From NCBI RefSeq assembly GCF_048403405.1, contig NZ_CP183131.1: a DNA stretch of 64,000 nucleotides. One strand, given 5' to 3'. Origin of the DNA: Escherichia coli. GTDB lineage: Bacteria > Pseudomonadota > Gammaproteobacteria > Enterobacterales > Enterobacteriaceae. Position 1 is the first letter of the stretch. Each line of letters begins with the position of its first letter. A program made the position numbers. This document shows positions 22,001 to 37,000 of this stretch, one piece after another.

Positions 22001-25000
22001 CAGTGGGCATGGGGTAATAAAGACGAATCTTTCCCCAATTCTTGTTGTCGGTAAAAGCGACCTTTGTTTGAGCAACACAAAGCTGCAAAAACATGAAAAG
22101 GAAGTCTTCTACCGAGTGCTTACCATCTGCACCAAATACTCCATCGACAATTGCCGGGGTCACTGCCACATTGGTCAGGAAACCAGCTTGTTTACCGATG
22201 GAAGATTGGTCCACCAGCAGACCATCATTGATGGCTTGTTGACGGATTTGGGCGAGGTCCAATTTAGCTACTTGGTTCATAAGGTGTACTCCAAAGTTAA
22301 TGGGTACACCTACCCCGTGCGGGGAAGTGTACCCGCATGGGTTATTGAAAGGTCACGGCCAAAGCCGAGCTTTAAGGTTCCGAGTTTTACGCTGGCTGAA
22401 TGCGCCAAAGAACGGTCGGAGGAAACGAGTCAGCGACACGCTTCACATTCGCGTAAAGAGTGTCCTTAAAGACACGCTCTAAGCGACGACCACCTTGACG
22501 ATAAACCAACTTAAAGTCTTGGAATTTGTTCATGGATACCTCCAGAAATAACGGGAGGTATCTCCAGCAGGAGATAGACTCCCGCAGGGATTAATAAATT
22601 AACGTTAATTTGCTGTTTGTTTTTGGCGACCAGCTATCGCACGCTTTCGCCCTCAGGGAGGACAAAATCTGCTTACTGATGGCTTAACCATGAGTAAGAA
22701 GACTTGGGAAGTAAAGCAGGGGTTTCCCCCTGCCTTGTTATGCCGCTTTGAGGTGGCGAGAGAAAAAGTCCCTGGTTTGCTGGATAGCGCCCCGGAGAAG
22801 TTCTCGTCTGTAGCCAGCGTAGCTCTTGTCATCACTGGCAACGGTCAAGCCGTGCAGACTCTCTTCACCCAGGACAATCTCGTTTTCACGAGAGAGTACC
22901 TCAACACGTAGGCCAAGCACTCGCTCTTTCCCTTCCAGGATAGAACAAATTGTTTGGTCTCTTACTTCGTCATCCCAGTGGCCCATATCGAAATCCCGCT
23001 CAGGGAGTTCAGTAACACGCACCAGGTAGTTTTCAGTGGCCCGTTCCCAAACCACTTCATCTTCGCATGGAGAGGCCTCGATCAGCGAGTACCCGTCCGC
23101 TTCGAGCTTCTTGGAAAGACTTTTTACATCATCCGCCAGCTCCAGCACAAAGCGTTCCCAGAGGTCTTGCCAGCGCTCGACCATATCCTGGTTAATCCCT
23201 TCAATGCCGGTGCCAATCATGGAATCATCATCAGGGAAGATCCCTGTGAAGTCCACGTTGTCGTCGATGTTCATGCAGTTCCAATGGCTGTAGTGATGCC
23301 CGTGACTATTCCGAGTAATGGACAGGTCACAGGAACCATATTCGCGGAGGACAGAAAGCATATTCTCAATGTCTTTCTGTGCCATCAGGTTCTTCACGCG
23401 GCTGACAGCATCCACTTGGCCGGGCTCAGTGCTGAATAGGCGATTCATGAGAGCTTTGACGTCATCAACGCTCAAATCCCCGTAGAAGGCTACGCCATCC
23501 CCCTGGCAGTATCCGAGACTGTACTCAATCGTCAGATCATCCGGGTATCCACACTTAACCAGTTCGTTTTGAAAATGCTGTTTAATCATTGGTATCTCCT
23601 TAATTTCAGAGGGAGACACCATCCCCTCAGGGACCGATGTCCCCCGTGGGGTTAATGTTTGGGTTAAGAAGCCTTGCGGTTTAATTCAGTATCAAATCGA
23701 GGACCTTTGAGAACCGCAGTTTTCATAACCTCGAAGTTTCTTGGGTAACGCAGCTTTGAAACTGCGCCAGCTCGGATGTCGGCAGCCTCACTTGGAGAGA
23801 CTAGCCTTAACCCTTCGCTGGTTTCAGCGTAGAACCAACCGGCATAACGCTCATAGGCATTCTGCTGGTACTGTTCAGTCGCCATATTCTTCCGGATCGC
23901 CTCTGTTAAGGCCTCAACAACACCGTCATCTTTCGTGATGATGTTGAAAACATGAGAGACGGTCAGGAAGTTCCCAAAGAAGCAGGCTGCCCCAAGCCAA
24001 GGCTGGAACATTTCGCCATTTCGCCCCGTCCTCACCATTGGTTCAAACGGGTATGGGCGATAACAGTGATACTGCTCAAACATCGGGTCAAGAACGTTGT
24101 CACCCAGGACATCCAGTAAAGTCTGAATGCTGTCCGGGTCTTGGCCTGCCCACTTACTCCCATTGCTGAGAATCAGTGTTTTACCGTCAGTACGCTCCAG
24201 AGCTTGTTCAAAGTTAGACATAGTGCATTCCTTTTGGTTAGGACGCACCACACCCTCTCGGGATGATGCGCCCGAGTGGGTTAGTTGAGAAGGCTTAGCC
24301 GTCAAGTCCGTAAATTACGGCGGAGCCGGGCTCCATCTCGACAACTTGTGCGCTTCCTTCTTCTATCAGCTCCTGCATGTAACCAGACTCAGCATCCGGA
24401 TTACGTTCGCAGTGTTCGTCCCAGCGTTTCAAAAGCCCTTCTGTGGCTTGTCCGTGGGTCTCACCAAGGCCGATAAACTCATAGTGTCCTGTGTTTACGA
24501 TGATCACCACCATAGCTAGTGCTCTCCTACAGGTCACTTGGTACATACAGGTCATCTTTGATGGCAGAAAAATCGACAGGAGACTGGTCCCCATAGGTTC
24601 GATTCACGCCACCAGCATCATCGACACTGACAAAAACCGTGCGGAGTAAACCGCTGGGCTTTGCAGGGTAAACGATGCTGACATGCTGACCTTTGTACTG
24701 TTCTGACAAAGTGCTTTGAAGCTCATCAACCGAACGGAATTTCCGGTCGCGGCCAAAGTCCTTAATCTTGATGTCGCCAGGGATTGGATTAGTCATCGTT
24801 ACCCCCTGCCAGCAGTTTATCTACTGAATGGCCGAGTCCGTTACCAAACCATTTGTCCAGAGCGTCGATTTCCGGGAAGTCCGATTTCACCTGAGCAACA
24901 ACACGTTCCATTTTGCTGAGAGCATCCTGGAACTCAAGGCCATTACCTGCGGCCACCTCAAGTTTGCACTTGATGTAAGCGGAGTAGGTATCACAGGCCT

Positions 25001-34000: not shown

Positions 34001-37000
34001 GTTAACCCCCCGCTTTAACCCGCGCTAAGCGGTTTAGGATAGACTTCACGCCTTCCCTTACTCCAGATGGATCGTAACCTGCTTCATCGCAGCAGACCAC
34101 AAATGAGAATGGATGTACCTCATCGGACATCACCCAAGCCATCGTTTCCTGCTTGATTTCACTTCCAGCTCGACCATCAGCAAGGACTCTAAGGCTATGC
34201 CATAAAAGCCCATCACGTAACTGCCTTACCTCATCATCAGTCCATTCAGGCTTTGGCTCAAATGGAATGACTTCTGCGGTCTTCGGCTCTTCATCCAGGA
34301 AGAAAAGCGGCAGCTCAAGCTGGTTTTCCTTCTGGATCATCTTCACTGCATTCATGGTGACTCCTTTTACGGGCACCATGCCCCCACAGGGGCATGAAGC
34401 CCCCAGTGGGGTTACAGTCATAGTTACTTCACGCCTGCCAGTTGAGAATTGATGTTCTCTTCCAGCCAGCCTTGAAGCGATTCAAGGTCACGTTTGTCTT
34501 CCGTATTGCTGGCTTTACGTGCATCTTCCGACACAGCGCTCAACATGGCGTTAGCCTCAGCAAGTGATTCAACATTGTTCCCAGGGAACACAATCGTTTG
34601 ACTGTGATCTTTCATGGTCTTCTCCTTTGAGAATGGAGGACCGTCTCCCATCAGGAAGAGCGGCCCCGTGGGTTAAAAGTAAAAATCCTCCAGCTCTTCA
34701 TGGTCAGGCTTTCGCTCAACTGGTCGAAGCAACTCAGCTTCATCAGCGAACTCAAGCTCAGGATGAAAAGCAGGATGAAATCCTCGATGCCAGACTGGAC
34801 GGTCATTATCGAGGTCTAAGTAGCAGTGCCTCCCACTGGCTGGGTGATAGCAGTAAAGCCACTGTCTACCACTAACGGTAAACGGCTTCTCTGCACCTCC
34901 ACATGCCGGTACAAGGTTATCTGCTGCTATATGCGCTACAGCATCCATAGGATCAGTCCTCATCTTCGTCATCACGAACACAAAGATCACGAGCAACTAT
35001 TTCCGCAGCTATCAACGCATAATCGTTGCCCTGCCAGAACCACCGCTCCGCCAGCTCATAGGCTTCGCTGGAAGGTTCGCCATAACCATGAGCCACCACG
35101 TAATCGTGGAACACTTCATGATCAAATGCCTTGCCATCAGCTTCCATGAACCAACCGACAGGGCACTCCAGAATGCGATGCCTTACGACATCTCGCTCTG
35201 AATACCCCTCTCTGACGGCTTGCTCCAACATTTCCCGCGACATACCAGGAGGAGTGATGATCTCTATGCTGATCCCGTCACTTCCTGCAAGATTGTCCTC
35301 GTATGGAAGACCGGCAAGTGTAAGGTGATTGCGCTTGCACCAGCCGATGGTCCGAAGTATCCGACTTTTGTCAGACTCCCTGGCCGTGTATCGGTTAAGC
35401 TGCATAGCCACCTCCAGCACACTCCCCATCTTCGATTTCACTTCCGAGCTCGACCATTCCAATCAGGTCAAGCTGGGTCATGTCCGAATCCAGAGAGCAG
35501 TCAATTGCTGACTGAATGATGCCTTTGTGGGCCAAGCCTAAAACGGACTTAATAGTCGAAAGCAGAGACTCGGCTTCGCTCTCGATTTGCTCCAGAATGT
35601 CTTTCCATTCCCAGTGCTCAAACGGTTGCCAAACGACCAGATCCTCAGGCTCGTCTCCCCGTTCGACACACTCAGACAAATACTCATAAGCCTTGCACCA
35701 ATTCTCTTGTTGGCCCAGTTCACTGAGCACTAGAGCGGTAGCATGACCGTATGCGATTTGTTCAACTTTGGTATTGATAGACATAGTGTTTCTCCTCGTA
35801 ATGGATAGAGGAGCCCCACCCGCAGGAAAGGCTCCTCCGGATGGGTTAAATTTCCAAGGTCACATCGGTTTTTGCTTTAGCGCAGCAAACCAACACTTCC
35901 CCTTCTTTGACAAATGCGATGGGCGTCTCGTCATAGGCCACTTGACCTTCGAGTAGACGAACCCGGCACATGCCACAAAAGCCACTGCGACAATGCGTTT
36001 CAACAGTGAGGCCTTTGCTTTCGATTTGCGCCAACAGCACATTGTTGCTGGCTTGAAGTTGTACGTTCATGGTCACGCTCCTTTGTTGTTGATGAGCGCG
36101 ACCAATCCCCTCCGGGATGTCACGCCCCGGTTGGGCTACTCAGCAAGTGCATAGACACCTACCTCGATGCGAATAAAGAACCTGGCATCTTGAAGAACTT
36201 GCCTGACCTTTGCTTGCCAGTGGTTGTTCTCTCGATGCTTTGCGTAGGGTTCAATCTCTTTGTAAATCTGCTCCAGCTTCAACGTTTTCCCCTGTAGGGT
36301 TCGGCGTATTGCAGCTTTCCACGTAGTCGAAACCATATTGGTTGCTCGACGGTGTACGGCAGCAAGAAGACAGAGCGATGAGGCAACGTCGTTACGACGA
36401 AACACCAACAGCTTTTCATGGGCGATACGCACCAGCTTCCCGGAATACTGAGTTCGGTCACTCACACAGTTGTGCTGTGTTTTGATGATCTCATCCACCA
36501 GCTTCCCAGGTGCGATACGTTCCACAAGGCTGGACAGGTTGAAATAATCCCCATCGCGCCTCAGGTTTCCCATGAGGATTCCGTAATGCCCTCCTCGCTC
36601 ACAGGCGTCATGAATATTCATAACGGCCAGCTCAAGGGCTTCAACGAACTCAGGCAAATTCATGCGGCTCATATCCCATTTGTTGGGCTCGCCCCACTGC
36701 TTACCTGAATACTGGATCATGTCCCAGTAAGGAGGGTGCCACCAGATCAGGTGTGCAGGCTCTCCGAGGAACGAAAGGAAGTCATCCCGCAACAGGTTGA
36801 ACCCCTGATGCAAGTCTGTCCCTTTGAAACGGACACCAAGTTCATTGGCAACGTCGATGCTAGAGCCACCCCCAACACTTGGGTCTGCCACCAGCCCGTT
36901 CGGCTTTCTCATGTAAGACTCAATGAAGTCTTTAACGATAAAGCCCGAGCAGTTGCCTCGGTACTTGTTGTTTCCGTAAGGCCCCCTGTTTTCGTAGGAG

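Follow-up and report, generated by a model that had tools for sequence, protein, structure and literature searches.

What could a mobile element gain from carrying two helpers of host nucleotide metabolism when it carries no ribonucleotide reductase genes? This question is raised by a 64,000-nucleotide stretch of Escherichia coli DNA (contig NZ_CP183131.1 of assembly GCF_048403405.1; hereafter the window), which encodes a YfbR-like HD-domain 5'-deoxynucleotidase and a YfaE-like 2Fe-2S ferredoxin. We put the probability at roughly one half that these are two separately captured housekeeping genes which adjust host deoxynucleotide metabolism in conjugation-active cells rather than in ordinary plasmid replication. 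On hundreds of plasmids, RefSeq already names these genes yfbR and yfaE, and their presence here is therefore a restatement of existing annotation. What is added here is that both genes are tied to the AcaCD regulon and are independent of each other, and that orphan yfaE genes recur on unrelated conjugative plasmids.

Location of the two genes on an IncC plasmid

The sequence from 24000 to 37000 showed 100% identity to a large number of conjugative multidrug-resistance plasmids of the IncC (IncA/C2) type, and at least 80% of its length was present in 637 plasmid records. This identity confirms that the genes are element-borne and places them on an IncC conjugative plasmid. One identical example is pIMP69_000369 from Providencia huaxiensis (NZ_CP031122; MOBH relaxase, MPF_F), on which RefSeq lists yfbR as WP_000071870.1 and yfaE as WP_001102700.1. 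The two genes are given below with the gene numbers of plasmid pVCR94, which were assigned by gene length and order.

24789–25394, minus strand: yfbR-like gene (vcrx115 of pVCR94; WP_000071870.1), HD-domain 5'-deoxynucleotidase of 201 amino acids
35846–36070, minus strand: yfaE-like gene (vcrx101; WP_001102700.1), plant-type 2Fe-2S ferredoxin of 74 amino acids

The original prediction had treated positions 24789–36070 as a single span. Both genes lie inside it, but they form two separate loci ~10.5 kb apart and not one unit, and ~20 other genes and an insertion sequence of the IS3 family are located between them.

The YfbR-type nucleotidase

The YfbR-like protein matched Pfam PF12917 (YfbR-like) with E 8e-38 and 130.4 bits (cut-off 25.9), passed the NCBIfam equivalog NF003009 with 128.5 bits (cut-off 122), and matched the sequence of the E. 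coli YfbR structure 2PAQ with E 1.6e-26. The assignment as an HD-domain 5'-deoxynucleotidase was thus upheld by a curated cut-off as well as by the 2PAQ match. In the 2PAQ alignment, R20, W21, H35, H69, D70, E73, D78, and D135 of the plasmid protein corresponded to R18, W19, H33, H68, D69, E72, D77, and D137 of E. coli YfbR, whose native numbering was counted from the alignment on the assumption of a two-residue tag on the PDB chain. In the E. coli enzyme, E72 is reportedly the catalytic Glu, and R18, W19, and D77 are said to be substrate residues. All four HD-domain metal ligands (H35, H69, D70, and D135) are accordingly present in the plasmid protein, together with E73 as the catalytic Glu and R20, W21, and D78 as substrate residues. 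Across 57 full-length homologues with identities as low as 45%, none of these eight residues varied, and the alignment therefore showed the catalytic HD residues to be conserved. The gene has a GGAGG ribosome-binding site 5 nt before its ATG.

Plasmid YfbR and E. coli YfbR (2PAQ/2PAR/2PAU) belong to the same family, have the same length, and agree in their metal ligands, catalytic Glu, and Arg-Trp/Asp substrate residues. Unlike the E. coli gene, the plasmid copy is located in an operon of small open reading frames (ORFs) under AcaCD rather than under housekeeping control, and its activity is predicted. The closest chromosomal relative examined was a Ferrimonas YfbR (58–59% identity), whose gene adjoins an aminotransferase gene, a neighbourhood that we take to be the alaA-yfbR arrangement of E. 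coli. This suggests that plasmid yfbR is a captured housekeeping orthologue and not a distant HD-domain cousin. In a 2022 paper, plasmid-borne yfbR had more co-occurrences with antibiotic resistance than any other metabolic gene on the conjugative plasmids of E. coli, and such associations between metabolic genes and resistance were overall found mainly on IncF, IncA/C, and IncN plasmids (PMC9750983).

The YfaE-type ferredoxin and the absence of nrdAB

The ferredoxin gene has an AAGGAG ribosome-binding site 8 nt ahead of an ATG at 36070. The mechanical ORF call begins at a GTG at 36076, and the length of 74 amino acids is counted from the ATG. The protein matched Pfam Fer2 with E 1.5e-10, and its score of 93.3 bits against the NCBIfam equivalog NF007985 (YfaE) exceeded the cut-off of 75. 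It showed 46% identity over 69 residues without a gap to E. coli K-12 YfaE (b2236, nrdAB-yfaE locus). Cys29, Cys34, Cys37, and Cys64 (CX4CX2C...C) were invariant in 66 family members. An exhaustive search of 1.8 billion representative proteins returned small ferredoxins as the nearest neighbours, and all of the 66 nearest relatives tested matched the YfaE model with E ≤ 1e-10. One of them, P0119 (41–46% identity, a distance similar to that of E. coli YfaE), is encoded directly after nrdB. The NF007985 score and the identity to E. coli YfaE bear out the description as a YfaE-like 2Fe-2S ferredoxin, and the alignment showed that the four Fe-S cysteines are conserved.

In E. coli, the diferric-tyrosyl radical cofactor of NrdB is maintained by the 2Fe-2S ferredoxin YfaE, whose gene directly follows nrdB. 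Plasmid ferredoxin resembles YfaE as a small, single-domain protein with four Cys ligands, close to the ~75–85 amino acids usual for the family. It differs from E. coli YfaE in that it is ~8–10 residues shorter at the N-terminus, is regulated by AcaCD, and is encoded beside an orphan DNA methyltransferase gene instead of nrdAB. When E. coli NrdA and NrdB were used as tblastn queries, no match at E ≤ 0.1 was found in the window or in positions 1–50000 and 56754–164992 of NZ_CP031122. No nrd gene was annotated in the window or in the searched parts of that plasmid either, in agreement with the earlier statement that no nrd genes are present here. The linkage of yfaE to nrdAB, seen in E. coli and at locus L021, where yfaE lies directly behind nrdB, is thus absent from the window and the searched parts of the plasmid.

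Both genes are transcribed under the control of AcaCD

AcaCD is the master activator of IncC conjugation, and repA is reported to be AcaCD-independent. The two genes belong to different operons, each with its own AcaCD-binding box.

22738–25669, minus strand: operon vcrx114–vcrx119 containing a 67-amino-acid ORF, yfbR, and four further ORFs; operon predicted from RNA sequencing (RNA-seq; PMC4207636 Dataset S1)
34953–38224, minus strand: operon vcrx098–vcrx103 containing vcrx098 (179 amino acids), vcrx099, an orphan N6/N4 DNA methyltransferase gene, yfaE, and two further ORFs
25815–25839, minus strand: AcaCD-binding box of the yfbR operon promoter, core CCCCAAAAGGGCA at 25824–25836
38448–38472, minus strand: AcaCD-binding box of the yfaE operon promoter, core CCCGAAAAGGGCA at 38457–38469

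In the first operon, the ORF behind yfbR overlaps the 3' end of yfbR by 8 nt, and the neighbours of yfbR that were tested gave no Pfam or NCBIfam match. The position of the yfbR-operon box matches the motif at 86650–86678 of pVCR94 that was found by chromatin immunoprecipitation with exonuclease digestion (ChIP-exo), with transcription start sites at 86713–86715, and that of the yfaE-operon box matches the ChIP-exo motif at 75267–75295 upstream of vcrx098 (Table S3, PMC4207636). The boxes upstream of traN, vcrx087, and vcrx098 aligned with the yfbR-operon box, and a search with the box pattern gave five hits against 0.46 expected by chance.

The published RNA-seq values for pVCR94 were 1 without AcaCD versus 3151 with AcaCD for vcrx101, and 50 versus 6412 for vcrx115 (PMC4207636 Dataset S1). 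Both genes are therefore nearly off without AcaCD and strongly on with it. Since they depend on AcaCD while repA does not, yfbR and yfaE belong to the programme of transfer and establishment and not to vegetative replication. This regulation does not suggest the link to the element's own replication that the original prediction had raised as a possibility. The adjoining AcaCD-activated operon vcrx089–093 has been shown to have functions in anti-restriction and double-strand-break repair, according to PMC7498323 as cited in PMC11602122.

The two genes are gained and lost independently

Related elements were compared over the region from vcrx098 to the toprim gene. A Pseudoalteromonas element contained the ferredoxin and no YfbR, an ENA metagenome scaffold contained YfbR and no ferredoxin, and a Joint Genome Institute (JGI) contig had no ferredoxin in the ~10 kb retrieved past vcrx098. 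YfbR without YfaE was also found on a Vibrio cholerae contig, of which 10 kb on either side was examined. A tblastn search of PLSDB detected YfbR-like genes on 833 plasmids, almost all of the IncC type, and YfaE-like genes on 1,455 plasmids. An obligate pairing of YfbR and YfaE was rejected in view of the presence and absence of the genes across related loci together with these plasmid-wide counts. The idea that the two form a functional pair is likewise not sustained, as they are driven by AcaCD in different operons and are gained and lost independently in related elements.

We estimate that several hundred Klebsiella MOBH/MPF_F plasmids carry an orphan yfaE and no yfbR. On these plasmids, yfaE is the first gene of a small-ORF operon beside a RelE toxin gene and orphan methyltransferase genes, and no nrd gene was found within 7 kb in the two plasmids examined. 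The orphan yfaE loci without nrdAB are as follows.

L015, 6920–7192: orphan yfaE
L016, 6953–7225: orphan yfaE
L018, 1320–1571: orphan yfaE
L020, 3899–4156: orphan yfaE

The contexts of these loci are the Klebsiella plasmids, a site directly behind a CobT/VWA gene, and another 3 kb from mobI. In total, orphan yfaE genes represent at least two sequence lineages in four genetic contexts on conjugative elements, and nrdAB is nearby in none of them. The YfaE lineages of mobile elements showed 38–46% identity to each other and 41–44% to the chromosomal YfaEs compared. That conjugative elements have taken up yfaE repeatedly is the most interesting outcome of this analysis, and it leads to the concrete hypothesis that plasmids act on the ribonucleotide reductase of their hosts.

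A possible role in host deoxynucleotide metabolism

We propose that both genes are accessory genes of the IncC backbone, each derived from a gammaproteobacterial chromosomal housekeeping gene with its biochemistry kept. The original idea of nucleotide-metabolism helpers is reasonable as a hypothesis, with two corrections: expression goes with conjugation and not with replication, and each gene stands alone. The YfbR copy would hydrolyse 2'-deoxynucleoside 5'-monophosphates (dNMPs), its presumed substrates in vivo, to deoxynucleosides. The YfaE copy would act as a one-electron donor which re-reduces the di-iron center of NrdB, the presumed partner in the class Ia reductase of the host, and the tyrosyl radical would thereby be rebuilt. 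Because each operon has its own AcaCD-requiring promoter, both proteins would be made together with the transfer machinery, and alongside the products of the anti-restriction and ssb-bet-exo repair genes. The setting would be conjugation-active donors, and recipients after the expression of AcaCD begins. Most likely, the net effect would be to shift the deoxynucleotide economy of the host while conjugative DNA is synthesised and the plasmid becomes established: a better-maintained NrdB would allow more de novo synthesis of deoxynucleoside diphosphates, and fewer free dNMPs would be salvaged. Neither gene depends on the other, and either may benefit the plasmid.

Several points weigh against this proposal. 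No experiment ties either gene to pools of deoxynucleoside triphosphates (dNTPs), to NrdB, or to the efficiency of transfer, and a literature search turned up no work on the function of vcrx101 or vcrx115. The PDB sequence search returned no YfaE structure on which to check the surface for interaction with NrdB. As far as is known, the usual host groups already have chromosomal yfaE and yfbR, and the plasmid copies thus look redundant. In addition, the two predicted activities would push the dNTP supply in opposite directions, and a logic like that of phage T5, in which salvage is blocked and de novo synthesis is favoured, would be needed to reconcile them. In the only experiment found, overexpression of a yfbR gene in E. 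coli brought no benefit for growth or under antibiotics and lowered oxygen consumption (PMC9750983). Finally, a 45.6-kb deletion from traN to traF leaves pVCR94 maintainable (PMC11493245), and mapping of coordinates onto pVCR94 indicated that the deleted interval spans both yfbR and yfaE.

Alternative explanations

The two genes might instead counter host defence, although we regard this as unlikely. Plasmid YfbR would then act like the phage T5 protein Dmp and strip free dNMPs, notably dAMP, early in establishment, which would block signals such as the deoxyinosine triphosphate (dITP) of the Kongming system, and the ferredoxin would keep the reductase running against dNTP-depleting defences. 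Dmp is a dNMP phosphatase that blocks Kongming through the depletion of dAMP (bioRxiv 10.1101/2024.12.20.629578). Like Dmp, plasmid YfbR is predicted to convert dNMPs to deoxynucleosides, is borne by a mobile element, and is part of a programme of transfer or takeover. It is also consistent with this explanation that both genes are in an AcaCD-induced block which holds proven anti-restriction genes, orphan methyltransferase genes, and ssb-bet-exo, and that YfbR gave weak matches to PHROGs named deoxyribonucleoside 5'-monophosphate phosphatase and dATP triphosphohydrolase. However, we know of no case in which a plasmid triggers Kongming. The match to the phage Dmp family was weak and partial (PHROG 318, E 3.7e-5, residues 31–104 only), whereas the protein and YfbR are close orthologues. 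Phage Dmps accompany a dNMP kinase (bioRxiv 10.1101/2024.12.20.629578), whereas no supported partner kinase is encoded on the plasmid. Early entry into the recipient cannot be claimed in support, because the IncC nic site is not mapped and hence gives no direction of transfer (PMC5587640). The IncC origin of transfer (oriT) lies upstream of mobI (PMC5587640), and coordinate arithmetic on pVCR94 placed the genes ~33–45 kb from oriT in one direction and 78–87 kb in the other.

Like the auxiliary nucleotide-metabolism genes of phages, yfbR and yfaE are mobile-element copies of host nucleotide and redox enzymes, and matches to phage families were found for the ferredoxin (PHROG 844, phage ferredoxins, E 3.7e-12) and for YfbR (PHROG 7076, DatZ-type dATPase, E 5.2e-17). 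Unlike those phage genes, the plasmid proteins are much nearer to bacterial housekeeping families than to phage families, and lytic phages replace the replication supply chain of the host, whereas plasmids do not.

It is improbable to a similar degree that the genes are passengers without a selected function, that is, housekeeping genes which were acquired by an ancestral element and are carried in a young, near-clonal backbone. IncC backbones are >99% identical, so that conservation within IncC says little, and 711 of the 833 plasmid YfbR hits were ≥99% identical. The lack of a fitness or antibiotic phenotype upon yfbR overexpression (PMC9750983) and the dispensability of the region for plasmid maintenance (PMC11493245), which were weighed above, would also be expected of passengers. 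On the other hand, homologues from diverged elements (45–87% identity) keep the eight YfbR catalytic residues, and the ferredoxins keep their four cysteines. Each gene has a good ribosome-binding site and is strongly induced by AcaCD. Orphan yfaE, present on ~1,450 plasmids, occurs in at least two lineages of mobile genetic elements, whose distance from each other is about equal to their distance from chromosomal YfaE.

The least probable of the alternatives is that the ferredoxin serves a plasmid-encoded partner in DNA-modification chemistry instead of host NrdB, the partner being the adjacent conserved protein vcrx098 or one of the DndC-like/PAPS-reductase-like proteins (the product of vcrx113 and that of a second copy close to repA). 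In favour of this, DndC proteins are Fe-S enzymes, the plasmid encodes both an 817-amino-acid DndC-like protein and a second protein with a PAPS-reductase domain, and the genes for vcrx098 and the ferredoxin share a boundary base in the Pseudoalteromonas element and are 11 bp apart in the JGI metagenome contig L010. Points against this partnership are the occurrence of vcrx098 without the ferredoxin (L012 and L013) and of the ferredoxin without vcrx098 (L018, L020, and the Klebsiella plasmids), and the entire sequence neighbourhood of the ferredoxin, which is the YfaE family. A DndC-like partner was not supported either: the ferredoxin occurred without it in the covered interval of the Pseudoalteromonas element and in the Klebsiella plasmids.

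Neighbouring genes and annotations

The genes around both loci share one strand and include traN, an AAA+/VWA module, ssb-bet-exo, two orphan DNA methyltransferase genes, and the genes for the DndC-like protein, a toprim protein, and an RHS toxin, as well as many small ORFs. Two features between or beside the loci are listed here.

36136–37059, minus strand: orphan N6/N4 DNA methyltransferase gene (Pfam N6_N4_Mtase match), between vcrx099 and yfaE
28412–29640, plus strand: IS3-family insertion sequence with 38-nt terminal inverted repeats (28412–28449 and 29603–29640) and a two-frame transposase, annotated as 'IS3 family transposase'

The methyltransferase showed a weak C-terminal match to a DpnI-like winged helix (E 2.5e-4). 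In the relatives from Pseudoalteromonas and JGI, vcrx098 directly adjoins the ferredoxin gene. The methyltransferase gene and vcrx099 are absent there and were thus apparently inserted into the operon at a later time.

The IS3-family insertion lies inside the span that was originally reported and is unrelated to either gene. It lies on the opposite strand between two genes, 3 bp behind the stop codon of vcrx112 and 87 bp ahead of the start of vcrx113, the DndC-like gene. pVCR94 lacks this insertion, and the gap between vcrx112 and vcrx113 is 87 bp there. The insertion probably cuts vcrx113 off from upstream transcription. The DndC-like protein (25871–28324, minus strand; 817 amino acids) resembles DndC/PAPS-reductase PP-loop enzymes over residues ~63–441. 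It matched NCBIfam TIGR03183 with E 1.3e-34, which is under the cut-off, and its C-terminal part of ~375 residues had no family match. The second PAPS-reductase-domain protein is encoded near repA (L002, 2590–3705, minus strand). Both are orphans, as the other dnd genes are not annotated on the plasmid.

Two RefSeq names were found to lack support. The 'thymidylate kinase' WP_000344151.1 (L003, 35631–36305, minus strand), the sole annotation that could have provided a plasmid dNMP kinase, was rejected as such because it had no support from Pfam, NCBIfam, or PDB sequences and no clean Walker A motif was seen. The 'pyruvate dehydrogenase' WP_000064431.1 (vcrx118; 23664–24221 of the window, minus strand) had no Pfam support. 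These two IncC names look like legacy mis-annotations.

Two further AcaCD boxes were observed. A perfect box core, CCCAAAAAGGGCA, is present at 44543–44555 on the minus strand, inside the ssb coding sequence and upstream of bet. The published ChIP-exo sites do not include this core, and it may represent a chance match or an internal promoter. The other box (17887–17899) precedes an RHS-repeat toxin gene (13557–17899, minus strand), which is followed downstream by a MafI-family immunity gene (vcrx128–129 in pVCR94). From the position of this box, the polymorphic toxin is therefore co-regulated with conjugation.

Implications for conjugative plasmids

A bolder and quite doubtful extension of the proposed role is that large MOBH/MPF_F conjugative elements use orphan YfaE and YfbR, induced upon conjugation, to take over the host. 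In a manner like that of T5, the host reductase would be reactivated by the ferredoxin and salvaged dNMPs would be drained by the nucleotidase, and this might fuel conjugative DNA synthesis or blunt immunity based on dNTP depletion or dITP. If this were true, the presence of orphan yfaE in four mobile-element contexts and on ~1,450 plasmids would represent a general and unrecognised plasmid strategy.

Among the major carriers of multidrug resistance are the IncC plasmids, most of whose backbone genes have no assigned role. If plasmid YfaE acts on the host reductase during conjugation, this would be a new interaction between plasmid and host, and a possible point of attack on transfer.

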